A stretch of DNA of 64,000 bases, taken from the NCBI GenBank assembly GCA_017479485.1, contig JAFVCC010000084.1:17958-81957 (forward strand). Direction: 5' to 3'. Below, one piece after another: positions 8,731 through 62,679 of this stretch; positions within the stretch are counted from its first letter, which is position 1; each line of letters opens with the position of its first letter. This stretch comes from Bacilli bacterium. Lineage in GTDB: Bacteria; Bacillota_I; Bacilli_A; RFN20; CAG-826. Below the pieces are notes generated by a model. The model made no database searches and was not told the origin of the DNA. It was given only the letters and a program-made list of their open reading frames with translations. The position numbers and the translations under genes were made by a program.

Positions 8731-8784
8731 AAGAAAAAAACCTCCTACACTCACATATAGGAAGTTTTTCATCGTGAGGCGAAA

Positions 8785-10628: not shown

Positions 10629-10684
10629 ATAGGCTCCTTTCGTTTTCGGTTAGTATAGTACGAATCTTTGCTTTGCCAACAGCC

Positions 10685-41682: not shown

Positions 41683-42838
41683 GTGTATATACCTCGATGA
41701 TGTTTTGATAGAAGCGTTCCATCGAATAGACGTCGATGGCTTCTAAAGCGGCGTCGATGATGCGTTTTTTATTCGCGGGATCTAAGGTAAGAAGTTTCCT
41801 TAGCTTTCCGTCGAAATCGTCTTCGTCATAGAAGAAGAATCCCGTCTTGCCATCCTGGATGGTGCCGACGAGGTTATCGTCGTAACGGGCAAGGACGGGC
41901 AAATGGGCGGCCATGGCCTCCATAAAGGTGAGGCCCTGGGTTTCGGTGATGGAGGCGGAGACAAAATAATCGCCTAACCGATAATAATCCTGGGTTTCCG
42001 AGGGGTCGCATTTTCCCGTGAAGACCACTTTGTCCGCGATGCCTAGCTCCGCCACGAGATCCTTGAGTTCCTTCTCCGCGGGGCCCCAGCCCGTAATCAC
42101 GAATCGCGTGGGGAAGGGCTCGCCTTTTTGGAGGAAGGTCGCGTAGCCGCGAAGCAAGACATCGATGGACTTCTCTTTGGCGATTCTGCCTAAGGATAAG
42201 ATAACCGTTTCTTTTGGTGAAATTCCAAATTTCGCCTTCAAATCCGCGGTCTTTTTGGGATCTTCCCGTTCGGGAGAGAAGCGAGAGAACTCAATACCGG
42301 TAGGGATGACAGGCACGGTCATATCGATGCCGATGGAACGGAGATACTCTTTGATTTTCTCCGAAGGGGCGATGAATTCCGCCATCATGTTCGAGCGCAC
42401 GCGGAAAAAGGCGCGCACCGCGTGGCGGGCGAATCGGTCGAAGTGCCCTTTGGTCACGTAATAGGCGTAGTCTTCCACCATCGTGTGGAATGTATCGACG
42501 AGGCCAACGCGTAATTGTCTGGCGGCGAGGGTGCCGAATAAGCCCACCGAGAAATCGGTCTGGCAATGGATGACGTCGGGGCGGAATTCAACCAAGCGCT
42601 TCATCACCTTTTGGGAGAAAGGCCGCGTCAGGCGGTAGCCATAAAAGCGTTTCATCTCGTATCCCGGGATGCGGATGATATCGCCTTCATCAAAACGCAG
42701 CTCGTTATCAAAAGGGTTGGTCGTCACGACGATGACCTGATGGCCGTGGGCGATGAGGGTCGCGCGGAGGTTCGCGGTCGAGGTGGCGACGCCGTTGATC
42801 TCGGGCGGATAGGTGTCCGTGAACAAAACGATGTTCAT
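41660..42838 (-). CDS. glycosyltransferase family 4 (diacylglycerol glucosyltransferase-like glycolipid synthase)
   Basis: GT4 fold with an 'EGLTFMEAMA'-type motif ('TETQGLTFMEAMAAHLPVL') and an N-terminal 'FTDTYPPEINGVA'. Start at MNIVLFTD. Confidence 0.85.
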   Translation of the reverse strand: MNIVLFTDTYPPEINGVATSTANLRATLIAHGHQVIVVTTNPFDNELRFDEGDIIRIPGYEMKRFYGYRLTRPFSQKVMKRLVEFRPDVIHCQTDFSVGLFGTLAARQLRVGLVDTFHTMVEDYAYYVTKGHFDRFARHAVRAFFRVRSNMMAEFIAPSEKIKEYLRSIGIDMTVPVIPTGIEFSRFSPEREDPKKTADLKAKFGISPKETVILSLGRIAKEKSIDVLLRGYATFLQKGEPFPTRFVITGWGPAEKELKDLVAELGIADKVVFTGKCDPSETQDYYRLGDYFVSASITETQGLTFMEAMAAHLPVLARYDDNLVGTIQDGKTGFFFYDEDDFDGKLRKLLTLDPANKKRIIDAALEAIDVYSMERFYQNIIEVYTRVRKKNW

Positions 42839-44241
42839 ATATCCCACTCCTCCCAAGAAGTATCATTCTTCTTTTTCTTGGAGGCCTTCGGCTTCTTTTC
42901 TTTCGGTGGCTTTCGTTCGGATTTGACGCGGTCCACATGCATGGGTTCAATCACGCCGTCATCATCGCCGTCTTTGCCGCGGAACCTCGGGAATTCGGTC
43001 AAGCGGCGCTGGATATCTTTGCGGCTTAGCTGGCGGGTTTCGTAAAGCGTATCCGCAGAACGCTTACGTTCGTCGAAGGTTTCGAGCTGCAAATCGACGA
43101 AGGTCTTGCGGTTGGCATAATGGATGGACTCCTTGGGGCGAGAACGATAGAACGCGGAAACAAATCCCGTCACGATGAGAACGATGTGGAAGGTCGCGGT
43201 ACGCCAGAGAATCTGGGAGGAGTTGAGCACGCCGAGGCCCTGGAACCAATCCGCGAAAAGATAGGAATAGAAAAGTTCGGAAACGCCAGCAGAACCCGGA
43301 AGAGGAATCAACCCGGTAACCATCTGATGGAAGGAGGTGCGGAAGCAAACGTGAAGCATGTTCACAAACGAGAAGCCTTCGTTGAAGATCGGGCCGGTCG
43401 CATGGACGGCATAGGCGCTGAAATAGGGAACAGAAAAGCGGACGAACAAGATGCCGATATAGAAAAACAGCTGGATGATGAGGACCGGGATATTTGACGC
43501 GAGACGCTTTAACTCGATCTTGAAGTTTTCAACCTGAACGCGCAACGATTCGCGCACGGCATCCGGCTTCTTCAAAATGCGGATTTTCGCGAGGAATCCA
43601 ATGACGTAATGAAGAATAAAGTTATGGAACCGGTGGCTATAACTCATCGTGATGAGCAAGAAGATGACGGATAAGTTGAGCAAGAAACCGATGATGATGA
43701 GCGGCCACATCGGCAGATGCCAATTCAGTTGATCGATGTTGACGTTGATCGATGCGACGGTGTTCCACTCGACGATGAAGGCCACGATATCGAAAACGAT
43801 CAATGACGTTTGGTAAAGAATGAAGGACATCACCATGATGGAGGCCGCGTTGGATACCTGGATGCCTTGGGATTTCAGGGTATAGACCTGCATAGCTTGG
43901 CCGCCGGAAGCGCCCGGTGTGACGTTGCTATAAAATTGGCCGATTAGGGAAGTCGCGAGTCCTTGATGGAACTTATATTGCCGTGTATAGAGGCGGCAGA
44001 ACACCAAAATAACTAAGGCTTCAAGGACATAAGAAAAGGCGACCAAGCCGAGCATCAGCAAGAACCAACGCCAATCTGTACCTTGGAAGGCGTCGACGAC
44101 CTGATGGAAGTTATCGCCCCAAAGCGAAGTAGCCAAAGAGACGCCGGTGGCGATGAGGACGATCAAGATATAGATGACGTACTTTACTCCGGACTTCTTC
44201 TTTTTACCGGTATTGAGGGTTGCGTTGCTGTCATTGGGCAT
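42835..44241 (-). CDS. MprF-flippase-like membrane protein (lysylphosphatidylglycerol synthase TM-region family, UPF0104)
   Basis: ~468 aa with 8 or more TM helices and a basic C-terminal tail. Architecture of the LPG-synthase TM domain family commonly paired with glycolipid GTs. Start at MPNDSNATL. Confidence 0.7.
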   Translation of the reverse strand: MPNDSNATLNTGKKKKSGVKYVIYILIVLIATGVSLATSLWGDNFHQVVDAFQGTDWRWFLLMLGLVAFSYVLEALVILVFCRLYTRQYKFHQGLATSLIGQFYSNVTPGASGGQAMQVYTLKSQGIQVSNAASIMVMSFILYQTSLIVFDIVAFIVEWNTVASINVNIDQLNWHLPMWPLIIIGFLLNLSVIFLLITMSYSHRFHNFILHYVIGFLAKIRILKKPDAVRESLRVQVENFKIELKRLASNIPVLIIQLFFYIGILFVRFSVPYFSAYAVHATGPIFNEGFSFVNMLHVCFRTSFHQMVTGLIPLPGSAGVSELFYSYLFADWFQGLGVLNSSQILWRTATFHIVLIVTGFVSAFYRSRPKESIHYANRKTFVDLQLETFDERKRSADTLYETRQLSRKDIQRRLTEFPRFRGKDGDDDGVIEPMHVDRVKSERKPPKEKKPKASKKKKNDTSWEEWDI

Positions 44242-44375
44242 AGGCGACAAGGCTATTTTAGCCTTTGTCGCGCCATAAAGAAACACCTCATATGCAAACG
44301 CGTGCGTGCGAAAGAATGCTCATAAATAGCGAAAAATACTCGTCAAACCCCATTATTTTTGAAAACGAAGTGACA

Positions 44376-44916: not shown

Positions 44917-46593
44917 ATGTTGACACGGCTCTCCATCACCAACCTCGCGATTCTTGAAAACGTCGATGTGACGTTCAAAGATGGCTTTACCGTCCTTACC
45001 GGAGGAACCGGCGCTGGAAAGAGCCTCGTCATTGATTCACTATCGCTACTTCTTGGGGCGAGAGCTTCCAGCGAGCTCATCCGTTCGGGCGAGGAAAAGG
45101 CAGTAATCCGCGGTTACTTCCACGTGGATTCCAGTCGCTTGTCCGCCCTACTTTCCAAACTTGAGATACCCTTCGTAAATAACGATATTCTTATCGAACG
45201 CACCATCTCGAAAACCAAGAACACGATTAAAGCCAATGGGGTGAATCTAAGTCTCGCCGATCTGTCCCGTATCGCCAAGCACCTCGCGGACATCCATAAC
45301 CAATTCGATTTCGCCAAAATCCTTAATCCAGAAAACTACCTCGACATTATCGATGGCTTCTCTTACGACGCGGCGATGCGTTACAAAGAAGAATACATCG
45401 CCCTGCTTTCCGCTTATAAAGATGCGAAAGGCACATACGAATCCTTGCTCGCCCAAAAGGCTAAAGTGGAAGCCAGCAAAGACTTCTACCTATTCCAACT
45501 GAAGGAGCTTGATGACGCGAACATTCAAGAAAACGAAGAGGCGGAAATCGCTGCGGAAATCGCCTTGCTCAGAAATTATGACCACGTCTATTCGCTATTC
45601 CAAAACGCAGACTCCATCATTCGCGAGGATTTCCTCGATCGTCTTTATGAGCTCAACAAAGTCCTAGCGAAGCTCGCCTCTTACCAGCCCCAATACCAAG
45701 AGGTGCAATCCCGAATCGACGAACGTTATTTCGAGCTTGATGACATCTTCACGACGCTGAAGAAAGATTTCAAAAACCTCGATTACGATCCGGAGCGCCT
45801 CAACTATTTAGAGCAGCGCAGCAGCGACATCTCTGCCTTAAAACGGAAATACCGCAAAACAATCCCCGAACTCATCGCCTATCGCAATGAGTTGCACGCC
45901 CTCCTTGGCGAAGACCATAGTCTCGATGATGCTATCGAAGAAAAACGTCAGCAGATGCTTTCCTTGCGTCATCAGACTTATGTCAAAGCCACTGAGCTCA
46001 CCGCGCTACGAAAAACGCTCGCGAAAAACATCGAGCGAGAGATTAAACGTAACCTCGAAGACTTGCTCCTTGCCGCGGACTTCAAAGTCGTCTTCAAGGA
46101 CACCAAAGAAGACGATTCCGATACCCTATTTGGCTCGCAGGGCATCGACGAGGTGGATTTCCTTGTGGAAACCAACGTCGGCGAAGGCTTAAAGAGCTTA
46201 TCTAAAGTAGTCTCTGGCGGCGAAGCTTCACGCATCATGCTGGCGTTTAAGGTCATCTTCGTCAAAGCCAATAAAATCGCGACCGTTATCTTCGATGAAA
46301 TCGATACGGGGTTAAGCGGGGAAGCCGCTTCCGCGGTAGCGAGGAAAATCAAAGAAGTTTCTTTGTCGAGCCAAGTGATCGCCATCACCCATATGCCGCA
46401 GGTCGCCGCGCTTTCGGACCACCACATCCTTATCCGTAAGGAAGTGTCCGGCGGGAGGACATCGACCAAAATCCGCGAGCTTTCGCTCGAAGAAAAGATC
46501 CATGAAGTCGCCTATCTAATCTCCGGCGGCAAAGTGACGGAAAAGCAACTCGAGTACGCGAAAGAAATCATTCTTTCTCCCGACAACAATTAG
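44917..46593 (+). CDS. recN: DNA repair protein RecN
   Basis: 558 aa with an SMC-like Walker A 'GGTGAGKS', coiled coils and a C-terminal 'LSGGE'-type motif. Confidence 0.93.
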   Translation: MLTRLSITNLAILENVDVTFKDGFTVLTGGTGAGKSLVIDSLSLLLGARASSELIRSGEEKAVIRGYFHVDSSRLSALLSKLEIPFVNNDILIERTISKTKNTIKANGVNLSLADLSRIAKHLADIHNQFDFAKILNPENYLDIIDGFSYDAAMRYKEEYIALLSAYKDAKGTYESLLAQKAKVEASKDFYLFQLKELDDANIQENEEAEIAAEIALLRNYDHVYSLFQNADSIIREDFLDRLYELNKVLAKLASYQPQYQEVQSRIDERYFELDDIFTTLKKDFKNLDYDPERLNYLEQRSSDISALKRKYRKTIPELIAYRNELHALLGEDHSLDDAIEEKRQQMLSLRHQTYVKATELTALRKTLAKNIEREIKRNLEDLLLAADFKVVFKDTKEDDSDTLFGSQGIDEVDFLVETNVGEGLKSLSKVVSGGEASRIMLAFKVIFVKANKIATVIFDEIDTGLSGEAASAVARKIKEVSLSSQVIAITHMPQVAALSDHHILIRKEVSGGRTSTKIRELSLEEKIHEVAYLISGGKVTEKQLEYAKEIILSPDNN

Positions 46594-48419
46594 TCTTTAT
46601 TTTGTTGAGCTTCAGCAAATTCGTCGATGAGAGGATAAAGTTTTAAATACGCGTCCTCGAAGGGGCCAACGTGGGCGCCGAGTTCCATAACTTTGTCGCC
46701 GCTTCCCGCATAGGAAGGCCAATTGGGAAGCGAGCCGCCGTTAGGATTGCCCGTTTTGACGAAGTTTGCCCAATAGGACATCATCGTCTTGCAAAGATCG
46801 TAGTCGGATTGGTGATAAGCGTAGCTGCGGCGCGCCTTTTCCACGTTGCCATAGCAATAGACCATCTCGCCGGCGTGGTAGGTGGAATGGTAGCCATTCT
46901 CTTTAGTGAACTGATAACGGTAGACGGGAATGCCACTAGCTAGAGCCATATTGCTCCAACTATGATGCGGATGGATGAACCAGTAGACCGAGATGATTTC
47001 ATTGAATGCAGAGAAAGCATCTTTTTCTATTTTTTCCTTGTAAATCTCCACTATTTTCTTGGCGATCTCTTCACCGAACACGTCTTCTAAGCGCGAGGCA
47101 ATGTTGCTTTTGTTCGTGGGCGAAAAGAGGTATTGGGGAACGACAAAGGCATCCGCTTCCATGACGTTATATCCATTAAGAAGCGCCTTCTCGTTGTTCT
47201 TCCCTTCCTGGTAAACCTGATACGGATGCTTGGGGAGCGCGTAGCCATCGATGGTCATCGAGCTATTGCTAAACTTGGTTTGGACCAGTTTGTCCGCGGG
47301 GATTTTTCGAAGTTCCTCGATCGATTTGCAACCGAACTCCGCCATAATGTCGGCACCGGTTTTCTTGGCTTTGTCTAAGCTGCGCCAGGTATGTGGGGTG
47401 TTGGGCACCACGAGGGAACTCGACTCACCGATCGCGTTTTTGAATAAGCCTGAAGCCAAAGGCGAAGTGCATAAGGCAGAAACGGATGAGCTGCCCGCGG
47501 ATTCGCCGGCGATGGTGACGTTATCTTTATCTCCGCCAAAGAAACCAATGTTATCGCGGACCCACTCGAGACCTTTGATTTGGTCGAGTAAGCCATAGTT
47601 GCCCGTCGTGTGGTTTGGGGACTCAGAAACTAGTTCTTCATGAGCGAAGTAACCGAATACACCAAGGCGGTACGCAACGTTGACGACGATGATGTTCTCA
47701 TGGGCCAAAGATTCGCCATTATAGTCTTCAAAGGCCGTGGAGCCAGAAGTCAAACTGCCGCCATGGATGAATACCAAAACCGGCAAATTTGTCTCTTCGC
47801 CAGCGGGTTTCCAGACGTTGAGATAAAGAGAGTCTTCGGACATATTTTGGTCCGGATACATGCGGTAATCCGGGTGCCATGCCTTCTCCGAGTACATATC
47901 GACGAGGCTATTCATCACCGCGTTGCTGCCAGGTTGCATCGATTTTGCGGCAAAGTAGGAGCAATCGCGCACCCCATCCCAGCTTTCGCAATCCTGAGGT
48001 TCTTTCCAGCGGTATTCGCCTACAGGCGGTTTTGCAAATGGAATTCCCGCGTAAACTTCGACTTTTTTATCCTCGGAATAGACGCCTTGCACTTTGCCTT
48101 TTTCGATTTGGAGAACCTGGGTCTTTTCAGGGTTCGCGTGGGTCACTGCGGGGCGAGCTTCCACGACAGGTTTGGCGGCAACGAGGAGAATCGCGCTGGT
48201 CACGACGATAGCCGCATAAGGAATTAACCTCCAGCGCATCTTCGCGCGGCGAAGCAAAATGCAAGCCACGGCAAACCCTGCCAAGGCGATCAGCTGCAAT
48301 ATGAACAAGACCAAGGGGCCATTTGCTAAATCATAATAGAGAACCAACAATGCCGTCGCGACGACAAACACGATGGGGAATGCGATCCAAAACGCGATGT
48401 TGCTCTTTTTCTTTTCCAT
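46590..48419 (-). CDS. carboxylesterase type B family protein with an N-terminal double-TM anchor (paralogue 1)
   Basis: Two N-terminal TM helices followed by a type-B esterase domain: 'EDSLYLNVW', 'IHGGS' and the nucleophile elbow 'GESAGSSS'. Confidence 0.88.
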   Translation of the reverse strand: MEKKKSNIAFWIAFPIVFVVATALLVLYYDLANGPLVLFILQLIALAGFAVACILLRRAKMRWRLIPYAAIVVTSAILLVAAKPVVEARPAVTHANPEKTQVLQIEKGKVQGVYSEDKKVEVYAGIPFAKPPVGEYRWKEPQDCESWDGVRDCSYFAAKSMQPGSNAVMNSLVDMYSEKAWHPDYRMYPDQNMSEDSLYLNVWKPAGEETNLPVLVFIHGGSLTSGSTAFEDYNGESLAHENIIVVNVAYRLGVFGYFAHEELVSESPNHTTGNYGLLDQIKGLEWVRDNIGFFGGDKDNVTIAGESAGSSSVSALCTSPLASGLFKNAIGESSSLVVPNTPHTWRSLDKAKKTGADIMAEFGCKSIEELRKIPADKLVQTKFSNSSMTIDGYALPKHPYQVYQEGKNNEKALLNGYNVMEADAFVVPQYLFSPTNKSNIASRLEDVFGEEIAKKIVEIYKEKIEKDAFSAFNEIISVYWFIHPHHSWSNMALASGIPVYRYQFTKENGYHSTYHAGEMVYCYGNVEKARRSYAYHQSDYDLCKTMMSYWANFVKTGNPNGGSLPNWPSYAGSGDKVMELGAHVGPFEDAYLKLYPLIDEFAEAQQNKD

Positions 48420-52111: not shown

Positions 52112-52699
52112 CTACTTCGCTTCGCCATGAATCTCGAGGCCGGGACAGGTCTCGATTTTCTTGCACCACTCCTCAACCTGGCTTTCCGAAAGCGTTTCAA
52201 TCTGTTTGGAACGCTTGAGCAACATGTGACGGAATTGGTTGGTGGAAAGGACATTAGGACAATCCATTTGCAGGATCTCCGCATTCACAAAAAGTACAAA
52301 ATTCTCTGCAGGAGCCGCTCCAATTACGGAACAAAGCGCTTCGATGTGCCCTTCGTTCTGCCGGTATGGGCTATAGAAATAATATTGGCCGGTAGAGAGA
52401 ACCTGAACCCACTGCGCATACTTAAGGCCACCGGCGACAGCACCAGAGTAATTCTTTGTTTCGATGACGAAAAACCCGTATTTGCAAATATAGATATGAT
52501 CGATTTGGGCGACTTGTTTTTCGCCGAGCTTCACAATGACGTCGTTGTAATAATGCCCGCCATAAAGATTTTGCATGCAAGCCAAAGCGCGGGAGACTTT
52601 GACCTCACCGCGACGACCTTGCTCTTCCGCCGCCTTCTCGCCAGGCTTATCGTCGAGTTCGCGGGACAAATAATAAAGCGCGAGAGCAGGATTGATCAT
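52112..52699 (-). CDS. NERD (nuclease-related domain) protein
   Basis: 195 aa with a NERD-like core 'QIDHIYICKYGFFVIETKNYSG'. Confidence 0.65.
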   Translation of the reverse strand: MINPALALYYLSRELDDKPGEKAAEEQGRRGEVKVSRALACMQNLYGGHYYNDVIVKLGEKQVAQIDHIYICKYGFFVIETKNYSGAVAGGLKYAQWVQVLSTGQYYFYSPYRQNEGHIEALCSVIGAAPAENFVLFVNAEILQMDCPNVLSTNQFRHMLLKRSKQIETLSESQVEEWCKKIETCPGLEIHGEAK

Positions 52700-52736: not shown

Positions 52737-53141
52737 TTAAAGAACGTTTTTCTGGATGGTCAAAATATTCTTGCCATCTTTACGCTCATAGGACATGCCA
52801 TCCATCGTCTTCTTTACCATAAAGATGCCGAGCCCGCCGATCTGTCGGTCCGCCAAAGGAACCGTGATGTCGGGGTCTTCGCGCTCTAATGGGTTATAGG
52901 GAATGCCTTCGTCGATGAAAATAATCTCCACGGTAGAAGGAGGAATGATATTCACTTTAACCGTCGCCATGCCCACTTCTTTATAGGCATAATGGGCAAT
53001 GTTGCCGAAAAGCTCATCGATGGCGATATCGAGTTGCATCACCGTTTTCATCGAGCACGGCAAAGCGTCGAGGCTGTTGTGGACAAAGTCCTCTACAACC
53101 GGGATATTCTCGATCGTTGCTTCTAAGGTAAGTTCTTCCAT
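52737..53141 (-). CDS. anti-sigma-factor-type serine kinase (GHKL/HATPase_c, RsbW/SpoIIAB-like), orphan
   Basis: 134 aa with 'ELFGNIAHYAY' (N box) and 'DEGIPYNP...IGGLGIFMVKKTMD' (G boxes). Typical size for RsbW-like proteins. Confidence 0.75.
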   Translation of the reverse strand: MEELTLEATIENIPVVEDFVHNSLDALPCSMKTVMQLDIAIDELFGNIAHYAYKEVGMATVKVNIIPPSTVEIIFIDEGIPYNPLEREDPDITVPLADRQIGGLGIFMVKKTMDGMSYERKDGKNILTIQKNVL

Positions 53142-53290: not shown

Positions 53291-54622
53291 ATGGAACACT
53301 GCACGTGGAAAACATCCATAGGTACTTTTATTGGGAATGAGAGGGAAGGTTGCTATGAATTCCGTGGCATCCCCTATGCCCACGCTAAGCGCTTCGAATA
53401 TGCGGAGAACGTCCATTCTTATGGCGATTCTTTCGACGCGACGAGCAACGGTCCCGCGACCATGCAGAAGCGCGCCTGGAGCGAATTCGAGCATCTCGAG
53501 ATTCCAGAGCGTGCCTTCTATCATAGAGAATTCCGCGAGGGCATCGCTTTTACCTACGATGAAGACGCGCTTTTGATGAATATCTTCGTCCCAAAAGACA
53601 AAGGTCCTCACCCCGTCATCGTCTATTTCCATGGCGGTGGCTTTGATTCGGGCTCCATCAGCGAATCTCCTTTCGATGGCGAAGCGCTCGCCTCGAGGGG
53701 AAACGTCGTCGTGTTCGTCCAATACCGCGTCGCGATTTTTGGTTATTTTACCCACGCCGAAATTGAAAAACGTAACGGCCACGACGGTAACTTTGGTCTT
53801 GACGACATGGTCCAATCGTTGAAATGGGTTCAAGACCATATCGCAGAATTTAAAGGCGACAAGGATAACGTCACATTGATGGGGCAATCCGCGGGAGCCA
53901 TGTCCATCCAATACCTCTTGTGCAGCCCAAAGGCCACTGGCCTTTTCCATAAAGCCGTCATGATGTCTGGGGCGGGGTTATTCCCGAGCTTCTCCTTGCC
54001 GTTGTCTCCAGAGCAAACGCGCATTTATTGGAGCGAGGTCATGGATATCGCCGGAGCCAAAACATTTGAAGAATTCCAATCTATGGACGTGCGCAAAGTC
54101 ATGGAAGCCGTGGAAACTCAAAAGTCCCGTCGCAAGGACAATACCCGTAATACTATGCCAGTCGTCGACCATTACTATTTGATCGACGAAGTGAAGAAAA
54201 TCATCAAGTCCCCGCACGAGATGCCGCTGATCATCGGGGTCACGAATAACGACATGTTCACCGCCATCATCGCCCATATCGCGAAGAAGTACGCCAAGAA
54301 ACACGGTGCCTATCTTTATTATTTCGATGTCGATGCGAAAGGTGATGAAAACCAAGCGTTCCATTCCAGCGACCTGCGTTACATGTTCGGCACCCTGAAG
54401 TCCTCCTGGAGGCCCTATGATGAAACGGACCAAAAGATATCCGAGTCCATGATGGATTATCTCTCTGCCTTCGCTTCTACCGGCGACCCGAACCATGAAG
54501 GCGCGCCGCGCTGGGACAAGTTCCAGGGCAAAGCACTTCACATCGCCCCTTCTTCCATCGGCATGGGGCGAATGGGAAACTGGAAGCTACTCAAAAACAC
54601 CCTGAAAGGAGACCCGAAATGA
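53291..54622 (+). CDS. carboxylesterase type B family protein, soluble (paralogue 2)
   Basis: 'HGGGF', nucleophile elbow 'GQSAGAMS' and a 'YRVAIFGYF' block. AGGAGAA SD upstream. Start at MEHCTWKTS. Confidence 0.88.
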   Translation: MEHCTWKTSIGTFIGNEREGCYEFRGIPYAHAKRFEYAENVHSYGDSFDATSNGPATMQKRAWSEFEHLEIPERAFYHREFREGIAFTYDEDALLMNIFVPKDKGPHPVIVYFHGGGFDSGSISESPFDGEALASRGNVVVFVQYRVAIFGYFTHAEIEKRNGHDGNFGLDDMVQSLKWVQDHIAEFKGDKDNVTLMGQSAGAMSIQYLLCSPKATGLFHKAVMMSGAGLFPSFSLPLSPEQTRIYWSEVMDIAGAKTFEEFQSMDVRKVMEAVETQKSRRKDNTRNTMPVVDHYYLIDEVKKIIKSPHEMPLIIGVTNNDMFTAIIAHIAKKYAKKHGAYLYYFDVDAKGDENQAFHSSDLRYMFGTLKSSWRPYDETDQKISESMMDYLSAFASTGDPNHEGAPRWDKFQGKALHIAPSSIGMGRMGNWKLLKNTLKGDPK

Positions 54623-56808
54623 AGTGGGATCATCGCTTTGAACTCATCGAGTCAGGTGAGAGCTACCGCATCTATCACAGCGAGGATAACATTGCCCGCT
54701 TCGACTTCTTTGAGCACGTGCTTCGCGTGGCTATATATAAGGAAGGGGAACGCCTCTTCCCCACCTACTCCATTTGCCCGGGGGAATCTCTTTTGCCGCG
54801 CCATGGCAGAGACCGCCTATCCACCGAGGGATTGAAGGGAGTTCCGCAGGGAAAAGAGCTCTGTATCGATAACGTAAATATCGAAATATCGCCGCAAAAC
54901 CTTCGCCTTTTTTGTCGTATCGGGGATTCGATCTTGTTTTGCGACCGCGAAGGGCTCGCCTACAATTTCGATGGCGAATTAGGGCAAGGTAGCTACCACT
55001 ACCTCTCCCGCGAAAAAGGCGAGCGCATCTTTGGTCTCGGCGATAAAACCGGCAACATCAACAAAGCAGGAAGGCACTTTAAAATGGAGACCTTCGACAC
55101 GATGGGCTTCGATGCGAATTCCTCCGATCCGCTTTATAAGCAGGTCCCGTTCTATATCTGCCAGAACTCTGTCGGGGCTTATGGCATCTTCTATGACACC
55201 TACTCCAATGGGGAGCTCGATTTCGGCGCAGAGCATAACAACTACTATTCGCCTTATAAAGTCGCTCATTTTGAGGAACGTCCCCTCGTTTACTATGTCA
55301 TCTTCGGAACGGCATCTGAGATTCTCCAACGTTTTTCATTCCTCCTTGGTAAAGCCGCCTTACCCCCGCGCTGGACGTTCCGCTACTGCGGCTCAACGAT
55401 GGCTTATACCGACGCCCCAGATGCAGAGAAGCAATTAAGAAACTTTGCTTCGTTGCTACAGAAATATGACCTAGACTGCGGTGGCTTCTACCTTTCTAGC
55501 GGCTACACACAAATCGGGGATCGACGTTATGTCTTCCATTGGAATAAAGACAAGATCCCCGACCCCAAAAAGCTCGCGGAGGATTTTAAGAAACAAGGAA
55601 TCCATTTCTTGCCCAACGTTAAACCAGCCTTTCTTACCGACCATCCGCTTTATGCTTCCATCGCGTCGAAAGGGTGGTTCCTCCATTATCCTGATGGCAC
55701 CCCCGCCACCTTCCCTTTCTGGGGTGGACAGGCATCCTATTTGGATTTCACTAGCGACGAGGCGTTCGATTTCTGGACGGCCTGCGTAAAAGAGAATTTG
55801 GTCGATCTCGGCTACGATTCCATTTGGAATGACAATAACGAATACGACATCCACGACGAGGACATCCTCGCTAACGGCTGGGGGACGCCCATCAAAGCCA
55901 AGCGGATTCGACCGCTCTTCCCCTTCTTGATGACGATGGCTTCCCGTGCGGCGGTTTCTTCCTCCGAACGCGTCATGTGCGTTTCCCGCAGCGGCATCGC
56001 CGGACACGAGCGCCTCGCCCAAACCTGGACTGGCGATAACAAAACCTCCTTTGAGGATTTCCGTGGCAACCACAAAATGGCCATGACCATGGCGCTTTCG
56101 GGCTACCGTTTCTTTGGGCAGGATATCGGCGGGTTCGCCGGACCGCGTCCTGAGAAAGAGCTCTTCCTCCGCTGGATCCAATATGGCATCTTCACCCCGC
56201 GCTTCACCCTTCATTCGTGGAATGACGATGGCTCTTCGACCATGCCTTGGCTTTACGAAGACCTCATGGACGAAGTCAAAGCGCTTTTTGCGCTCCGCAA
56301 ATCATTGGTCCCCTACATCTATAGCGAGGCCAACCGCGCGGTCGAGGAATACCTCCCGCTGATTCGGCCCGTCTTCTTAGAGGACGAAAGCTATGACATC
56401 GAAAGCGACTGCTTCTTCCTTGGAGATTCCATCCTCGCCTGTCCCGTTTTCGACCCAGGCATAGCCAAGAAACGCATCGTCTTGCCTTCAGGAAATGGCT
56501 GGTACCTTGGCGACGAATATTGTCGAGGCGAAAAAGACATCGATACGCCGTTACATGGATTGCCCCCATATTTCGTCAAAGAGGGATCCGTTATCCCCAT
56601 GGATGAACAAGGACAAACCGTCTTCCACATCTATGCGAAAAAAGACGGGGCGTGGGACTACCGTTTCTACGATGACGAATCAATAAATAACGCCTCGCGG
56701 CTCATCCGCGTGGAATGTCTCGATCAGGTTATCGTGGTACATGGCGTGCAGCACGATAAGCATATCCGCGTTCATGACGTGATGCATCGGATGATTCGCC
56801 AAAAATAA
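54619..56808 (+). CDS. glycoside hydrolase family 31 (alpha-glucosidase/alpha-xylosidase-like)
   Basis: 729 aa with the GH31 catalytic region 'WNDNNEY' (nucleophile Asp) and 'WTGDN'. Start overlaps the upstream stop (ATGA). Confidence 0.88.
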   Translation: MKWDHRFELIESGESYRIYHSEDNIARFDFFEHVLRVAIYKEGERLFPTYSICPGESLLPRHGRDRLSTEGLKGVPQGKELCIDNVNIEISPQNLRLFCRIGDSILFCDREGLAYNFDGELGQGSYHYLSREKGERIFGLGDKTGNINKAGRHFKMETFDTMGFDANSSDPLYKQVPFYICQNSVGAYGIFYDTYSNGELDFGAEHNNYYSPYKVAHFEERPLVYYVIFGTASEILQRFSFLLGKAALPPRWTFRYCGSTMAYTDAPDAEKQLRNFASLLQKYDLDCGGFYLSSGYTQIGDRRYVFHWNKDKIPDPKKLAEDFKKQGIHFLPNVKPAFLTDHPLYASIASKGWFLHYPDGTPATFPFWGGQASYLDFTSDEAFDFWTACVKENLVDLGYDSIWNDNNEYDIHDEDILANGWGTPIKAKRIRPLFPFLMTMASRAAVSSSERVMCVSRSGIAGHERLAQTWTGDNKTSFEDFRGNHKMAMTMALSGYRFFGQDIGGFAGPRPEKELFLRWIQYGIFTPRFTLHSWNDDGSSTMPWLYEDLMDEVKALFALRKSLVPYIYSEANRAVEEYLPLIRPVFLEDESYDIESDCFFLGDSILACPVFDPGIAKKRIVLPSGNGWYLGDEYCRGEKDIDTPLHGLPPYFVKEGSVIPMDEQGQTVFHIYAKKDGAWDYRFYDDESINNASRLIRVECLDQVIVVHGVQHDKHIRVHDVMHRMIRQK

Positions 56809-56975
56809 CAATCTTGCCAAAGTCGAAAAAACCATCAAATTTTTATCCTTTTCGCCCAAAATCGATAAGGTATTCGCCCTTGTTTTTGTTTTGCCTTGTT
56901 TCGAGGCGCGAAATTTGAAACAATACGTTGAAATTTTAATGCGCCACAAGCAATGCTTGTTGGACGGGAGAAAAG

Positions 56976-59966
56976 ATGAAAACCATAATCGACACCTTAG
57001 CGGAATTTACCGCCGCCACCCCCAATAACGCCATCCTTTTCGATGAAGCGCACAACAAGGGCATCACTTATGCCCAACTTGACGACCTTTCTGGCCGCGT
57101 CTATGCCTTCTTGAAAAACAACGGCATCGGTAAAGAAGACTTTGTCTTAATTGACTTGCCTCGCGGCGTCATGCCCATCATCGCCATGATCGGCATTTGG
57201 AAAGCCGGCGCGGCATGGGCGCTAGTTGAAGATACCTATGCGCCAGAACGTATCGCTTATATCCGCAAGGACTGCGGCTGCAAGTTCGAACTTTCTTCCG
57301 CCAATTGGGATGACGTCATGCACACCGACCCCCTCTCGGGACACGAAAACCCCGATGAACACGACGCCGCCTACGCCATCTATACTTCTGGCACCACCGG
57401 CAATCCTAAGGGCGTCCTCCACGAATATGGCAACTTGGGTCGCGCTATCGACTCCATCCGCGTCCATGGCGAAGTTCCCTTCAACAGCAAAGACCGCCTC
57501 GCGCTTCTTGCTCCGCTGAACTTCGTCGCCTCGGTCATCGTCATTCTCACCGCTTTAAGCGTCCACTGCGGCAAAACCTTCGTCGTCAGCTACGCCACCA
57601 TCAAGAACCCGATGGCGCTCAAGATGTTCTTCTTCGAGAAGCGCATCTCCATCACCTTCCTCACGCCGTCCTACGTCCGCATGCTTGGAAACCAGACCGG
57701 GCCCTTCCTCCGCATGCTCTTCGTCGGCAGCGAACCTGCGAACAACATCTACAACAAGAACCTCGATCTAATCAACATCTATGCCTGCTCCGAATCGGGC
57801 TTTGCCGTCGGCGTTTTCCCCATCGACAAAGCCTACGATACCTGCCCCATCGGCAAGCCAGAAGTCGAGACCCGCATCGTCTTGCTCGGCGAAGATGGCA
57901 ACGAAGTCCCCGATGGAGAAATCGGCGAACTCTGCTTCGAAAACCCCTTCGTTCGTGGCTATATGCACCTCGAGGAAGAGACCTCCCGCGCCTTCGTTAA
58001 CGGCCTCTATCATACTGGCGACTTAGCCCGTCGCGACGAGAATGGCTGCTATGTCTTGCTCGGCCGTTCCAACGACATGATCAAGATTAACGGCAACCGT
58101 ATCGAACCCGCCGAAATCGAAGCCGCAGTCAAACAGGTCCTCGGCGTTTCTTGGGCCGCTGCCCGTGGCTTTGAGGAAGCCGGCAAGAGCTACCTCTGCG
58201 CCTACTATAAAGACGATGTCACCTTCGATCCGAACGAAGTCCGTGAGAAGATGCTCCAGCGTCTCCCCTACTACATGATCCCGGCCTACTACGTCAAAGT
58301 GGACCGCATCCCGCTTAAGCCCAACGGCAAACTCGACCGCAACGCCCTCCCCAAACCCGACGCCAGCGACTTCAAGAGCAAATATGTCGCGCCGACCAAC
58401 GAGACCGAAGAGAAGATCTGCCACGCGATGGAGAAGGTCCTCAAAGTGGAACGCGTCGGTATCAATGACGACTTCTATGAACTCGGCGGCGATTCCCTCG
58501 GCTCCATCCAGGTCATCGTCAACGCCGAACTCCCCGGGCTCAACGCCAGCGAGATCTTCCGTGGCCGCACTCCCGAAAAGATTGCCAAGCTCTACGAAGA
58601 AAACCACGCCCAGCAAGATGGCGAATCTCCGGAAGCGAAGAACGCCGCGGCCATGAAAGTCGACCACCCGCTCACCCAAGAACAGCTCTATATGGTCGAC
58701 TATCAGCTCTACACGCCGAAATCGACGATGTACAACCTCTTCTCCATGATGAAGGTGGACAAAGAAACCTTCGACATGCAGAAGCTCGCTGAGACGATGC
58801 AAGCCATCATCCGCAACCACCCTGCGCTTCTTACTACCTTCCACTTCAATGACGACGGCGAAATCGTCCAGCGTTACACCCCCGAAGTCCTGCAAGACAT
58901 CCACGTGGAGAAGCTCAGTGAATTCGAGTTCGAATCCTTAAAGGACACCCTCGTTCTTCCCTTCAAGATCATCGGTGGCTGCCTCTATCGTTGCCGCGTC
59001 TTCGAGACCGAAAAGAACGGATATGTCTTCTTTGACGTCCACCACACCGTCTTTGATGGCACCTCGCTCAAGGTATTCATGGGCAACGTTGGCAAAGCCT
59101 ACATGGGCATGATGCCAGACCCCGACTTCTATTACCTCATGCTCGCAAGGCGCGAAGAATCGACGAAGACCGCCTTCTACAATGAGTCCAAGGAATATTT
59201 CGAAAAGCTCTACGACAACGTGGAATGGTCCTCTTACCCCCATATCGACCACGAGTCCCGCGAAAACGAAATGGGCGAGCTCTTCGCTCCCTTTGGCATC
59301 GAGCAAGGGCAGATGGCCGCGATGGAACGCATCTACCGCATTAGCCGTAATGAATTCTTCATCTCCGCAGCGGTCCTCGCCATCTCCATGTACAACAACA
59401 AAAACGACATCAAGATCTCCTGGATCTATAACGGACGTGAAGACATGCAGATGATGTCCACGGTCGGTTTGCTCTTCCGCGATCTTCCCATCGGCGTACA
59501 TTTGGACGAAAAGATGACACTCCGTCAACTCTTTGCAGAAATCCATAACCAGGTCCAAGGTGGCATCGAGCATAGCTGCTATGCCTATGTGGACACCCAT
59601 AACCAAGTTGCTAATGGCGAATCTGCCTACCTCCTCTATCAGCAGGATATCCGCGATATGGGCGGGATGGATGGCATGAACATCGAGACGGTCGATATCC
59701 GTCAGAACCAAGCCGCTTCGCAGACCATCCTCGACATGGAAATCCTCGACGGCAAGGAAGGCCTCATGCTCATGATGGACTATGCCGCGAGCCGCTATAC
59801 CCGCGCCTCCATGGAGAAGTACTGCGACCTCTTAGTCCGCACCGCTCAAGCCATGATCACCCACAACTCGCAAGACGACGTGACCCTCGGCCAACTCCGC
59901 GCCAAGCTCCAAGACAAGAAGAACTTCTTCGCCCGCGTCGTCAGCCTCTTCCGCAGGAAGAAATAA
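56976..59966 (+). CDS. single-module nonribosomal peptide synthetase, domain order A-T-C
   Basis: A-domain cores: A3 'YTSGTTGNPKGV', A5 'NIYACSESG', A7 'YHTGDL', A8 'GRSNDMIKINGNRIEPAEIE' and A10 'PNGKLDR'. The A4 region reads 'LNFVASVIVIL' (Asp235 replaced by Val). T domain 'FYELGGDSLGSIQV'. C domain with C1 'PLTQEQLYMV', C2 'RNHPALLTTF' and C3 'DVHHTVFDGTS'. Confidence 0.9.
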   Translation: MKTIIDTLAEFTAATPNNAILFDEAHNKGITYAQLDDLSGRVYAFLKNNGIGKEDFVLIDLPRGVMPIIAMIGIWKAGAAWALVEDTYAPERIAYIRKDCGCKFELSSANWDDVMHTDPLSGHENPDEHDAAYAIYTSGTTGNPKGVLHEYGNLGRAIDSIRVHGEVPFNSKDRLALLAPLNFVASVIVILTALSVHCGKTFVVSYATIKNPMALKMFFFEKRISITFLTPSYVRMLGNQTGPFLRMLFVGSEPANNIYNKNLDLINIYACSESGFAVGVFPIDKAYDTCPIGKPEVETRIVLLGEDGNEVPDGEIGELCFENPFVRGYMHLEEETSRAFVNGLYHTGDLARRDENGCYVLLGRSNDMIKINGNRIEPAEIEAAVKQVLGVSWAAARGFEEAGKSYLCAYYKDDVTFDPNEVREKMLQRLPYYMIPAYYVKVDRIPLKPNGKLDRNALPKPDASDFKSKYVAPTNETEEKICHAMEKVLKVERVGINDDFYELGGDSLGSIQVIVNAELPGLNASEIFRGRTPEKIAKLYEENHAQQDGESPEAKNAAAMKVDHPLTQEQLYMVDYQLYTPKSTMYNLFSMMKVDKETFDMQKLAETMQAIIRNHPALLTTFHFNDDGEIVQRYTPEVLQDIHVEKLSEFEFESLKDTLVLPFKIIGGCLYRCRVFETEKNGYVFFDVHHTVFDGTSLKVFMGNVGKAYMGMMPDPDFYYLMLARREESTKTAFYNESKEYFEKLYDNVEWSSYPHIDHESRENEMGELFAPFGIEQGQMAAMERIYRISRNEFFISAAVLAISMYNNKNDIKISWIYNGREDMQMMSTVGLLFRDLPIGVHLDEKMTLRQLFAEIHNQVQGGIEHSCYAYVDTHNQVANGESAYLLYQQDIRDMGGMDGMNIETVDIRQNQAASQTILDMEILDGKEGLMLMMDYAASRYTRASMEKYCDLLVRTAQAMITHNSQDDVTLGQLRAKLQDKKNFFARVVSLFRRKK

Positions 59967-59969
59967 AGC

Positions 59970-61640
59970 ATGTCCAAGAAATCCATCGAAAAAGACATCG
60001 AGCGCCAAATGCTCGCGCTTTATGGTGAGAATAAAACCCTCACCGAAAACCCCGACCCCGAGCATAGTGTCACGTGCTCTAACGGCACTTTCGTCCCGAA
60101 AGTCGAGGGCACCATCTCCGCATTCCGGGGCATCCCTTTTGCGTTGCCTCCAATTCATGAAAGAAGGTGGCGGGCACCCGAACCCGTACCCGACGAAAAT
60201 GAGATCCGCGAGGCTTTCTATAACGCAAAAAGTCCCATCCAAACGCGGATTCCCTCCGAACGGTCTTCCTTCTATCCCCAAAGTGAAGATTGCCTCTATC
60301 TGAACGTCTGGACCAACTCCGCCTGCAAAGACCGGAACAAGCCCATCATGGTTTTCATCCATGGTGGCTCCTATGGTTGGGGAGGAACGGTCGACCCCTT
60401 ATACGACGGCAGGAATTTCATCGCCGACCACCCCGACGTCGTCTTAATCACCATCGCCTACCGCGTGGGTATCTTCGGTTTTATTGACCTTAGCTACCTT
60501 GAGGGCAGCGATGGATACGAAGATTCGACGAACCTCGGCCTTTTAGATCAAATCGAGGCCTTGCGCTGGATACAGCGTAACGGCGCCGCCTTTGGAGGCG
60601 ATACCGCTAACGTCACCATCTTTGGCGAATCTGCAGGCGGTGGATCGGTTTCTTTATTGCCGTTAATCAAGCAAGCGGACGGACTCTTCCGTCGCGTCAT
60701 CGCCGAAAGCGGCTCTGTCGCCTTCACCTTTTCCCGCGAAGAATGCAAGGTCTTCACCACGCGTTTAATGGAGTATGCCAAGACGACTTCCTTGGACGAT
60801 TTACTTTCCATGTCCACGGAAGAAATCGCAAAAATCAACGTAAAACTCAATGATTTTAATAATTTCCCGATGCGTGACGGCCGCATTGTCCCCTTCGATC
60901 CTTATGCGGAATACGAACGTGGGGTGACGCGGAAAATCGACATGCTTGCGGGAAGCAACGAGAACGAAATGAACTATTGGATTGGCGAGGTTGGAGGGAT
61001 CTTCCCCTACTGCATCGGCTCCTTCTACAAGTTCAACCATGACTCAAAAAGCCTCGCTCCCGTGGACCGAAAGCGCGTGAAGAGCTTCCTAAAAACCGTG
61101 CGCCGAACCTACATTTGGAAGCTTACGGAATTTTACAACGACCTCATGTTCCGCCTGCCCGCCATCAAGCAAGCCGACGAGCATGCGAATAGCGGCGGCA
61201 AATCCTACCTCTACTTCTGGAGGGAACCTTCTCACATTTTCTTGCGTCGCGCCTGCCACGCCGTGGAACTCGCTTACGTCTTCCGTAATATCGATGACAC
61301 GGTTTATACGGGCAAAAGAGCCGACGATGAGCTCTCCAAAGAGGTTGCTCAAATGTGGGTCAATTTTGCAAAAACAGGGGACCCGTCAACGCAAAATCAT
61401 CAATGGCCGGCCTATAACGCCATCACCAAATTAACCATGACGTTCAAGGCAAATCAGGTATACGTTGCTGGCGATATCGCCGCGCAGCGTCGGGAGCTCC
61501 TCTACCCCTTGCTGCCCCTGATGATCACCCCAAGTTACGCCAATTTGGACGGGGAAGCCCCATTCATGGCGGAGGTAAGCTACATCATCGCAGCAGCACT
61601 CTCCTCATTGATCGTGTCCATCGGCGGACTCTTCCATTAA
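59970..61640 (+). CDS. carboxylesterase type B family protein with a C-terminal TM anchor (paralogue 3)
   Basis: 'EDCLYLNVW', 'IHGGS', 'GESAGGGS' and a C-terminal hydrophobic helix 'VSYIIAAALSSLIVSIGGLF'. Starts 4 nt after the NRPS stop. Confidence 0.88.
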   Translation: MSKKSIEKDIERQMLALYGENKTLTENPDPEHSVTCSNGTFVPKVEGTISAFRGIPFALPPIHERRWRAPEPVPDENEIREAFYNAKSPIQTRIPSERSSFYPQSEDCLYLNVWTNSACKDRNKPIMVFIHGGSYGWGGTVDPLYDGRNFIADHPDVVLITIAYRVGIFGFIDLSYLEGSDGYEDSTNLGLLDQIEALRWIQRNGAAFGGDTANVTIFGESAGGGSVSLLPLIKQADGLFRRVIAESGSVAFTFSREECKVFTTRLMEYAKTTSLDDLLSMSTEEIAKINVKLNDFNNFPMRDGRIVPFDPYAEYERGVTRKIDMLAGSNENEMNYWIGEVGGIFPYCIGSFYKFNHDSKSLAPVDRKRVKSFLKTVRRTYIWKLTEFYNDLMFRLPAIKQADEHANSGGKSYLYFWREPSHIFLRRACHAVELAYVFRNIDDTVYTGKRADDELSKEVAQMWVNFAKTGDPSTQNHQWPAYNAITKLTMTFKANQVYVAGDIAAQRRELLYPLLPLMITPSYANLDGEAPFMAEVSYIIAAALSSLIVSIGGLFH

Positions 61641-61698: not shown

Positions 61699-62499
61699 TT
61701 AGCTACGATGCTTTAGCTTTGGCGCGACAATGTGGAGATTGTGCGCCTTAGCAAATGTTTCGAAACGGGAATAGGAAGTCGTCCGGTATTCCTCGGGGCG
61801 ATGGGCGTCAACGCCGAAGACCACATCGGAACCCACCTGTGAAACAATGTCCCAAAACTTGCCATAAGGATAGTCAATCGCGCCGCGCTCATCCGGCAAC
61901 GAGGACCTTCCATGAGCCATATTGACTTCTAAAGGCACGCCAAGCCGCTTGGATGCTCCCGCGATAGCGAATGCGCATTCTATGGTCGCGTGGTTCCACT
62001 CGCGCCCAAAGATCAAGAAGAAATCAGGGTGAGCTACATAGGCAAATAGCCCCGTCTCCATGCCACGAATGACGTCGTCCGTGTAATGGCGGACCGCCGC
62101 CTCGTAAGTAGTGTCACGGATATACCAGTGCATGGCGTTATCGCAGAAGAAATAATGCTGCCCAAGGATGAGGTAATCAATTTTTCCTTCATCGAGCAAA
62201 CGCCGGTAATACTCTTCAAACTCCGGAATATACTCCGCTTCAAAGCCGGCATAGATATCCATTTGCTTTGCGTAATTCTTCCTTAAGGAACGTATGGATG
62301 CTAGATAATCGTTCAATAATTCATAGTCGCCACGCATGCCAGGCTGAGTAAGACCGGGTAAAAACACATGATCGGAGAAGCCAAGCTCCTTTATGTCGAC
62401 GTCCAATGCGGCTTGGACATATTCTTCATCTTCGCCCTCGGCGTGTCCGCAGCGCTTTGTATGGGAATGAATGTTGTATTTCCAAGGGCATTGTTCCAT
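61699..62499 (-). CDS. PHP-domain phosphoesterase (histidinol-phosphatase HisJ/HisK family)
   Basis: 'NIHSHTKRCGHA' H-x-H motif and further conserved His/Asp ligands ('HPD', 'GVDAH'). Start at MEQCPWKYN. Confidence 0.8.
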   Translation of the reverse strand: MEQCPWKYNIHSHTKRCGHAEGEDEEYVQAALDVDIKELGFSDHVFLPGLTQPGMRGDYELLNDYLASIRSLRKNYAKQMDIYAGFEAEYIPEFEEYYRRLLDEGKIDYLILGQHYFFCDNAMHWYIRDTTYEAAVRHYTDDVIRGMETGLFAYVAHPDFFLIFGREWNHATIECAFAIAGASKRLGVPLEVNMAHGRSSLPDERGAIDYPYGKFWDIVSQVGSDVVFGVDAHRPEEYRTTSYSRFETFAKAHNLHIVAPKLKHRS

Positions 62500-62679
62500 A
62501 TGACCATAGAATATACCCCACAGGTGATTTGTCAAAATCGATTCCTCGCGGTTGCATCCCTAATCCCTTTTCTTGTGGAAAAAGAAGCCGCTTTTGCAGA
62601 GTAATCCATAGAAATTGCCTCATGCACGCGCACGTAACGTTGTTTCCAAGACATACAGTTCCTATAATATCGACGCTTT

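Follow-up and report, generated by a model that had tools for sequence, protein, structure and literature searches.

A single-module A-T-C synthetase with a Val235 adenylation pocket, its carboxylesterase neighbour and the partner-switching genes of its relatives

What does a nonribosomal peptide synthetase (NRPS) make when it consists of a single module, is accompanied by no thioesterase and carries an adenylation pocket that departs from the amino acid type? This question is raised by a gene for a 996-aa protein in a stretch of 64,000 nt from a Bacilli bacterium (GenBank assembly GCA_017479485.1, contig JAFVCC010000084.1, positions 17,958 to 81,957 of the forward strand), which is called the window here and whose first letter is position 1. 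An initial annotation, made by a model from the letters alone, had presented this gene as an orphan synthetase with an adenylation (A), a carrier (T) and a condensation (C) domain, directly coupled to a membrane-anchored type-B carboxylesterase, and had suggested that its product is released as an N-acyl amide or an ester by condensation with a free amine or alcohol. Our analysis indicates that the observation was real and correctly described and that the interpretation was reasonable; taken as a whole, this interpretation is partly supported. The main new result is the linkage, at the level of the family, of such A-T-C proteins to a partner switch and to an exporter. We propose that the locus encodes a working stand-alone enzyme of acyl activation and acyl transfer rather than a fragment of a peptide assembly line. 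This enzyme would act together with the esterase at the inner face of the membrane, its product being exported and its output being gated by the partner switch at the family level. We give this whole model a probability of about 0.5.

The synthetase, its adenylation pocket and its esterase

The features of the NRPS and of the carboxylesterase that follows it, named EST2, are listed below with the evidence used.

56976-59966, + strand: A-T-C NRPS-like protein, monomodular, 996 aa (list of open reading frames and Pfam)
57009-58331, + strand: adenylation domain, aa 12-452 (Pfam, HMMER and MAFFT alignments)
58410-58586, + strand: carrier domain, aa 479-537, with Ser507 in GGDSL as phosphopantetheine site (PP-binding)
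58668-59879, + strand: condensation domain, aa 565-968, with the motif H689-H690-T-V-F-D694-G695 (Pfam, AlphaFold2 model)
59910-59963, + strand: basic and aromatic C-terminal tail of the NRPS, QDKKNFFARVVSLFRRKK (charge, hydrophobic moment, conservation)
59970-61640, + strand: type-B carboxylesterase EST2, 556 aa, with Ser221 in GESAG (Pfam COesterase PF00135)
61572-61637, + strand: hydrophobic C-terminal tail of EST2, about aa 535-556 (Kyte-Doolittle)

The open reading frame, the Pfam matches and the motif positions agree on an intact A-T-C protein that carries all the motifs quoted in the initial annotation. The A domain matches AMP-binding (aa 12-328, E 1.3e-50) and AMP-binding_C (aa 380-452), the carrier domain matches PP-binding (aa 479-537, E 1.4e-5, 25.7 bits for a cutoff of 20.8) and the last domain matches Condensation (aa 565-968, E 8.8e-37). 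The motifs are found at aa 136 (YTSGTTG), 182 (NFVASV), 449 (PNGKLDR, with Lys452), 504 (GGDSL, with Ser507) and 689 (HHTVFDG), the second His and the Asp of HHxxxDG being both present. The core motifs A3, A7, A8 and A10 of the A domain, the GGDS serine and HH..FDG are, like all core motifs, invariant in the family, i.e. across 205 proteins of clade A and 17 proteins of its sister clade B. A protein identical to the window NRPS exists as a database entry (P0001) named 'MAG: Bacilli bacterium'. A tblastn search for further NRPS-like genes in the 64-kb window returned the self-match alone. As initially annotated, there is no second module and no thioesterase: neither was found in the window or in the loci of relatives, and the same holds for a further carrier protein.

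In A domains, Asp235 forms a salt bridge with the alpha-amino group of the substrate. The replacement of this residue by a Val had been proposed from the letters alone and proved to be right: the position corresponds to Val184 both in a HMMER alignment, which places 'FSFDGS' of LgrA on 'LNFVASV', and in a MAFFT alignment with GrsA. The register of the GrsA reference sequence was checked by the return of the published code DAWTIAAICK. From GrsA to the window protein, MAFFT pairs D235 with V184, A236 with A185, W239 with I188, T278 with F228, A322 with I268, I330 with F276, C331 with A277 and K517 with K452. The resulting specificity code, VAIFLVIFAK, is hydrophobic throughout; it contains no acidic residue and no Asp shifted to position 236, which is an Ala. 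Positions 299 and 301 are ambiguous in register by one residue (L/V with MAFFT, F/G with HMMER against LgrA) and are hydrophobic either way. The same code is found in 183 of the 205 clade-A proteins, clade B having VAIFL[LVI]FFLK in the family alignment, and Val235 is kept in 221 of the 222 proteins of the family. Hence, of the two residues that characterize amino-acid-activating A domains, the Asp (at 235 or shifted) is absent and Lys517 is present, as Lys452 of PNGKLDR, which is invariant. Furthermore, the match of the window NRPS to TIGR01733 reaches 222 bits and remains under the cutoff of this model (317).

Since the pocket has lost the salt bridge made by Asp235, the substrate expected for this A domain is a carboxylic acid without alpha-amino group, which would be hydrophobic. 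Other A domains devoid of Asp235 are those of the cereulide and valinomycin synthetases, which take alpha-keto or alpha-hydroxy acids, and DhbE and EntE, which take aryl acids. They share with the window protein a neutral residue at position 235, a conserved Lys517 and an otherwise aliphatic pocket, but they belong to multimodular lines or have a free-standing aryl carrier protein as partner. The bulky F278, I322 and F330, together with L/V or F/G at 299/301, resemble codes of the Leu/Ile type minus the Asp. In our judgement, an aliphatic or aryl acid of compact shape would suit such a pocket better than a long (C12-C18) chain.

The AlphaFold2 model of the C domain, built from 58 sequences of the family, has a mean predicted local distance difference test score of 84. 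In a Foldseek search against the PDB, it resembles solved canonical C domains, with template modelling (TM) scores of 0.70-0.76 and 13-18% identity. None of the subtypes compared is favoured by the search of PDB sequences or by Foldseek, the domain being equidistant from LCL, DCL, starter, E, X and CT domains. Beyond the C domain, the last 18 residues of the NRPS, QDKKNFFARVVSLFRRKK, have a net charge of +6, and a 12-mer of this tail, NFFARVVSLFRR, is strongly amphipathic (hydrophobic moment of 0.76). The pattern DKxNFF......FRRKK is kept in clade A and absent from clade B. Given its charge and amphipathy, the tail (DKKNFFARVVSLFRRKK) may be an amphipathic helix that targets the protein to the membrane.

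The gene that follows the NRPS encodes, as initially described, an alpha/beta-hydrolase; it has an intact triad and a hydrophobic C-terminal tail. Its ATG begins at the fourth nucleotide past the NRPS stop codon (TAA AGC ATG, i.e. a spacer of 3 nt), and in relatives the stop codon of the NRPS and the start codon of the esterase overlap. Translation of EST2 is probably coupled to that of the NRPS. An esterase gene is located directly 3' of the NRPS in 68 of the 97 relatives with enough downstream DNA. EST2 matches the Pfam COesterase family with an E value of 7.2e-90 and can be aligned to Est50 (E 1.2e-67) and to PnbA (to about 1e-65) with the Ser, Glu and His of the triad in register. The GESAG motif is kept in all the EST2 orthologues examined (28/28). 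EST2 carries no N-terminal hydrophobic segment or signal peptide, and its last 19-mer has a Kyte-Doolittle value of 1.99. Since both a signal peptide and an N-terminal anchor are lacking, its catalytic domain is most simply placed in the cytoplasm.

EST2 is one of three type-B carboxylesterase paralogues encoded within 15 kb of the window (46590-48419 on the - strand, 53291-54622 on the + strand and 59970-61640 on the + strand). The first of them, 609 aa long, has three N-terminal hydrophobic segments. Likewise, the locus L118 of a relative carries two COesterase genes beside its adenylating enzyme.

Partner genes, distribution and mobility of the family

Linkage to other genes was counted in 35 loci of clade A, all non-redundant and flanked by 3 kb or more on either side of the NRPS. 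A STAS gene is present in 31 of these loci, a SpoIIE-type PP2C phosphatase gene in 16 and a HATPase_c_2 kinase gene in 13. EST2 is found in 28, which bears out the co-occurrence of the NRPS with the downstream esterase, and 32 loci carry either EST2 or a MATE exporter. Two gene orders are encountered, namely SpoIIE, kinase, STAS, NRPS and esterase in some relatives and NRPS, MatE, STAS, kinase and SpoIIE in others. As the association survives this rearrangement of gene order, the partner genes are likely to be functionally linked to the NRPS.

Where the STAS gene is directly upstream of the NRPS, it is located 14-30 nt from the NRPS start. It encodes a protein of 99 aa that passes the anti-sigma-antagonist model TIGR00377, and its phospho-serine motif, Y[IV]SSAGLR[VL]LL, was found in 62 of the 62 distinct sequences. 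The SpoIIE phosphatases of the family have 5-8 membrane segments. The MatE gene (444-469 aa) begins at most 30 nt past the NRPS stop codon in 14 loci, mostly at 7-8 nt, and the standalone MatE partners pass the efflux-type model TIGR00797. Moreover, the HATPase_c_2 kinase domain is fused to MatE in four loci (L004, L015, L018 and L029) and, elsewhere, to SpoIIE or to an AMP-binding enzyme, the latter fusion forming a large family of proteins of about 668 aa. Loci bearing fusions include L029 (5408-9170), L118 (7001-12895) and L119 (7001-16019). In L118, the AMP-binding/kinase fusion is accompanied by a homologue of EST2 (48% identical along its full length), an Acyl_transf_3 membrane acyltransferase, a STAS protein and a SpoIIE/kinase fusion. 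The neighbours in L119 are a membrane acyltransferase of the HGSNAT type, a MatE protein and two further A-T-C proteins, one of which has Val235.

In the literature searched, no paper that connects a partner switch with an NRPS or with a MATE pump was found. PADLOC returned no anti-phage defence match for the NRPS, EST2, the kinase, the NERD protein described below, STAS, SpoIIE or the MatE-kinase fusion. The word 'orphan' used by the initial annotation overlooks the family context of STAS, HATPase_c_2, SpoIIE and MATE, most of which the window has lost.

In the window itself, only two features recall this context:

52737-53141, - strand: HATPase_c_2 kinase (RsbW/SpoIIAB-like serine kinase), 134 aa (Pfam, E 2.2e-17)
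56809-56975, no strand: spacer of 167 nt upstream of the NRPS, at the STAS position of relatives (sequence)

The kinase has weak matches to RsbW among NCBIfam models and is 49-59% identical to the kinases encoded beside STAS and NRPS in L012, L015, L016 and L018. Compared with the family, the window locus is reduced: STAS has been lost, no phosphatase gene is found nearby and the kinase gene is the sole partner-switching gene left. The context of the family is more interesting than the window alone. The NRPS/esterase pair of the window is probably unregulated or regulated in trans. Directly downstream of the kinase gene lies a NERD nuclease-related gene (52112-52699, - strand).

The sequence family is narrow, as only four representatives of the same architecture turned up in a search of representative proteins clustered at 50% (1.8 billion). 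In this search, the whole-protein query was swamped by giant multimodular NRPSs with summed domain scores, and the other matches were multimodular NRPSs of 26-34% identity. The architecture of about 990 aa recurs in hundreds of distinct proteins, and one scan of JGI metagenomes added 256 relatives. A set restricted to a single genome for each species yielded 27 loci. For at least 19 of these, the isolate or contig name marks a ruminant or rumen source (rumen RUG sets, ruminal_MAG, RGIG goat, water deer, roe deer, Red_deer), and none names another habitat. One of them comes from a cultured isolate, Ruminococcus sp. JL13D9, whose locus on NZ_CP162392 is L019. This uncharacterised family, linked to a partner switch, was found here in ruminant-gut assemblies only.

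Identity to the window NRPS is 76-85% for the relatives that bear the labels Bacilli, Bacillales or Erysipelotrichaceae and 67-77% for those with the labels Clostridia, Clostridiales, Ruminococcus, Lachnospiraceae or Oscillospiraceae. From such high identities between proteins of different classes, we infer that the family spread horizontally. Three markers of mobility support this spread: a MobA/VirD2 relaxase gene (L029, 9403-11523) beside the 57%-identical family locus of L029, an IS30-like transposase gene (L019, 6498-7541) inside the L019 locus, between kinase and STAS, and an IS110-like transposase gene (L031, 688-1962) directly upstream of the NRPS, at the STAS position, in the locus of the closest relative of the window protein. 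No plasmid-borne member of the family was found in PLSDB, where only generic NRPS matches below 60% identity were obtained. The flanks of the NRPS differ in nearly every relative, and the locus is not universally conserved beside housekeeping genes.

Clade B (45-50% identity) has neither STAS nor esterase. Its A-T-C gene is located 20-30 nt downstream of a gene for a secreted clostripain-like C11 protease. In L035, L036 and L037 (about 5900-10970), this protease, of about 690 aa, always precedes the clade-B A-T-C protein, and in L035 the pair follows radical-SAM, Nif11-leader and C39-ABC genes that resemble a cluster for ribosomally made peptides with post-translational modifications (RiPPs). 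GNAT acetyltransferase domains are fused to some family members or flank them (P0283, a clade-B protein of 1182 aa; L029, 1265-1885 and 4826-5371; L117, 3233-4162), which hints at the handling of amines in the pathway. Genes of membrane homeostasis also occur near various family loci without being conserved, namely those for MscS channels, LtrA, a membrane glycerophosphodiesterase and PAP2 (L004, 5015-5824; L019, 12762-14726; L021, 4922-6673; L003, 6669-7574).

Proposed mechanism and alternative explanations

In the model that we propose, the A domain would adenylate a hydrophobic carboxylic acid without alpha-amino group, and the acyl group would then be loaded onto the phosphopantetheine arm carried by Ser507. 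Since the C domain (HHTVFDG) follows the sole carrier domain, this upstream carrier would be the donor, and since no acceptor carrier is encoded nearby, the simplest acceptor would be a free amine or hydroxyl rather than a carrier-bound one. The product would thus be released as an N-acyl amide or an ester, and no thioesterase would be needed. The enzyme probably sits at the inner face of the membrane, as suggested by the hydrophobic tail of the esterase and the basic amphipathic tail of the NRPS. The esterase would work on the same acyl chemistry. We favour the reading in which it releases the acid from an ester so that this acid can be activated again; equally, it could hydrolyse the ester product, in which case the two enzymes would form a make-and-remove pair. 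Family-wide, the product would be exported via MATE, as MATE pumps replace or accompany the esterase. The output would be gated post-translationally: the membrane PP2C and the HATPase_c_2 kinase would set the phosphorylation state of STAS, and unphosphorylated STAS or the kinase would gate the enzyme, as in the partner switches that control diguanylate cyclases (PMC8457831).

Several points weigh against this model. The loss of Asp235 tells what the pocket binds poorly, not what it binds, and the fold comparison places the C domain in no subtype, so that amide and ester formation are indistinguishable. The tail of most Bacilli-type EST2 orthologues scores only 1.2-1.6, which is amphipathic rather than clearly transmembrane, and the tail of EST2 could be a peripheral anchor. 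In addition, the EST2 homologue of L118 has membrane segments at both its N- and C-terminal ends and may face outward. As for regulation and export, this part of the model is drawn from relatives: tblastn detected no STAS or SpoIIE in the window, and no MATE gene is found beside its NRPS.

The main rival is an envelope acylation comparable to Dlt or OatA/Ape, in which an unusual acyl group would be placed on a lipid of the membrane or on a glycan intermediate linked to a lipid, a MOP/MATE protein would flip the intermediate and the esterase would remove the mark; the partner switch would tune this modification to a membrane signal. The 5-8 membrane segments of the SpoIIE phosphatases, the weak match of the MatE/kinase fusions to the MurJ flippase and the membrane-type tails of both the NRPS and the esterase are in line with such a role. 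So are L118 and L119, where the adenylating enzyme adjoins an Acyl_transf_3/HGSNAT acyltransferase, of a family that acylates extracytoplasmic glycans, and the two-end membrane segments of the L118 esterase homologue, which fit an outward-facing domain. Envelope genes (LPG_synthase_TM, GT4 and PMT_2-like) are present in the window too but are not conserved together with the NRPS. However, no Acyl_transf_3 gene adjoins a clade-A A-T-C gene, the window EST2, devoid of signal peptide and N-terminal anchor, is most simply cytoplasmic, and the standalone MatE proteins pass the efflux model TIGR00797, which is not a flippase model. We regard envelope acylation as doubtful for this locus. Also at odds with our model, but with next to no weight left, is the view that the gene is what is left, decayed or non-functional, of a larger peptide synthetase cluster, or that its pocket was misread and the module is an ordinary one for amino acids. 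It could call on the single module without thioesterase in the window and on the TIGR01733 score of 222 bits for a cutoff of 317. This view is already refuted at the sequence level by the hundreds of distinct proteins of about 990 aa in which every catalytic motif is invariant, by the 256 relatives in JGI metagenomes, by the Val235 given by two independent alignments and shared by 221 of 222 proteins, and by the lack of any multimodular relative above about 34% identity.

The nearest functional analogue is the fatty-acid amide (FAA) pathway of the gut (Chang et al. 2021, as cited in PMC13310621 and PMC10871352). In this pathway of gut Clostridia, OaaA, OaaACP and OaaC (Coprococcus eutactus) act as A, carrier and C proteins and make acyl amides from free amines (PMC13310621). 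The window protein could be its fused equivalent, i.e. a fatty-acid amide synthase that joins a long-chain acid to a small amine and yields an exported signalling lipid. Our model resembles this pathway in several ways: in both cases a non-amino acid is held on a carrier, a terminal C domain joins it to a free small amine, no thioesterase is used and the hosts are gut Firmicutes; furthermore, FAA clusters also contain a hydrolase (PMC10871352), the pocket is hydrophobic and the family has MATE exporters. The window protein nevertheless fuses in 996 aa three functions that are free-standing in the FAA pathway. Its C motif is the canonical HHxxxDG, against (D/H)HxxxD(S/A) for FAA, and the partner genes are COesterase, STAS, kinase, PP2C and MATE in its family versus an SCP2-like protein and a phosphopantetheinyl transferase. 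In our judgement, its bulky pocket would also accommodate a compact acid more readily than a C12-C18 chain. With the Oaa sequences taken from the supplement of PMC13142362, OaaC gave a best BLASTP E value of 0.75 against the window NRPS and no match with phmmer or with the hidden Markov model of the family C domain, OaaACP gave no match, and OaaA was 22% identical over 280 aa only (E 5.7e-7), a similarity at the superfamily level. This direct comparison led us to reject membership in the FAA/Oaa family, and a fused FAA synthase is unlikely; the window protein may work in a like manner without being a member. A last possibility, to which we give very little credit, is that the A-T-C protein and the esterase, instead of making a free metabolite, write and erase an acyl mark on the conserved serine of the adjacent STAS or on a membrane component sensed by PP2C, acylation competing with phosphorylation within one partner switch. 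It would explain the location of STAS at 14-30 nt from the NRPS start where directly upstream, the nearly constant pairing of a synthetase with a hydrolase (carboxylesterase in clade A, protease in clade B) and the fusion of HATPase_c_2 to adenylating enzymes; the sequence data lend it no specific support.

The logic of the proposed model can also be compared to that of other systems. Terminal C domains releasing their product onto free amines are those of VibH, of the bacillamide synthetase BmdB and of the rhabdopeptide/xenortide synthetases. There too, the product is released by condensation with a soluble nucleophile and not by a thioesterase, but the donors are peptidyl or aryl groups, the systems are larger and, by sequence, the C domain of the window resembles theirs no more than it does any other. 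Mycobacterial acyl-trehalose synthesis relies on FadD, Pks, the C-like PapA, the membrane alpha/beta-hydrolase Chp and MmpL. Adenylation, carrier, C-type acyltransferase, membrane alpha/beta-hydrolase and exporter are found in both; the parallel is limited to this logic, given that the protein families of hydrolase and exporter differ. In fumonisin synthesis, FUM10 (A) and FUM14 (T-C) make esters (PMC3705289). This pathway shares with the proposed model the order of the A, T and C domains, a terminal C domain that acylates a free acceptor, a non-amino acid donor and the cleavage of such an ester by a type-B esterase; a fumonisin esterase of this type (PDB 8s6d) is among the matches of EST2. 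The pathway is, on the other hand, fungal and uses two proteins and a tricarboxylic acid donor, and the esterase comes from unrelated degrader bacteria instead of the locus of the producer. Partner switches with an enzyme as output are SiaABCD, HsbA-HsbD and BgrV-BgrR, whose outputs are diguanylate cyclases (PMC8457831). As in the family described here, a PP2C phosphatase, a kinase of the HATPase_c_2 type and a small, phosphorylatable STAS-like protein are encoded beside a biosynthetic enzyme, in the absence of a sigma factor; unlike them, the window has lost its STAS gene.

Bacteria of the ruminant gut harbour thousands of NRPS clusters with almost no known products (PMC8241843), and the survey of rumen biosynthetic gene clusters does not single out this A-T-C family. 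The family, common to Bacilli and Clostridia at 70-85% identity, is a good target: it is compact (one synthetase and one hydrolase), abundant in ruminant metagenomes and open to experiments, since Ruminococcus sp. JL13D9, in which it occurs, is in culture. The acids that prevail in rumen chemistry and are hydrophobic, namely branched and volatile fatty acids, phenyl-substituted acids and hydroxycinnamates from plants, would be candidate substrates. If our model is true, gut Firmicutes would have in this family a second way, unrelated to the first, of making acyl amides or acyl esters. To our knowledge, it would also be the first case of an NRPS in which the output is controlled not by transcription but by a partner-switching phospho-relay.

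Other genes of the window

The remaining neighbours of the NRPS/esterase pair are as follows.

53291-54622, + strand: EST1, a COesterase of 443 aa (public gene call), cytoplasmic (Pfam)
54619-56808, + strand: GH31 glycosidase, overlapping EST1 (Pfam)
61699-62535, - strand: PHP gene (Pfam)
from 62680: PMT_2-like membrane protein, marginal match with E 6.7e-6 (Pfam)

The initial annotation had correctly described these genes as flanks of the pair. They accompany the NRPS only in contigs of the same sequence as the window (L001 and L002 for EST1 and GH31). They were therefore rejected as parts of the cluster, being species-specific neighbours without conserved linkage. EST1 and GH31 are located directly 5' of the window NRPS, where relatives carry STAS.

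An Rfam scan of the window and of four relatives detected no riboswitch or other element near the NRPS, and a scan for promoters and terminators gave as many matches as shuffled sequences and was uninformative. Farther away, a GT4 glycosyltransferase gene adjoins the gene of an LPG_synthase_TM protein (41660-44286, - strand); these envelope-lipid genes are unlinked to the NRPS in relatives. The window also carries a class B RNase P RNA (18175-18494, - strand, 243 bits) and a flavin mononucleotide (FMN) riboswitch (26176-26293, - strand, 86.7 bits), both consistent with a Bacillota chromosome.

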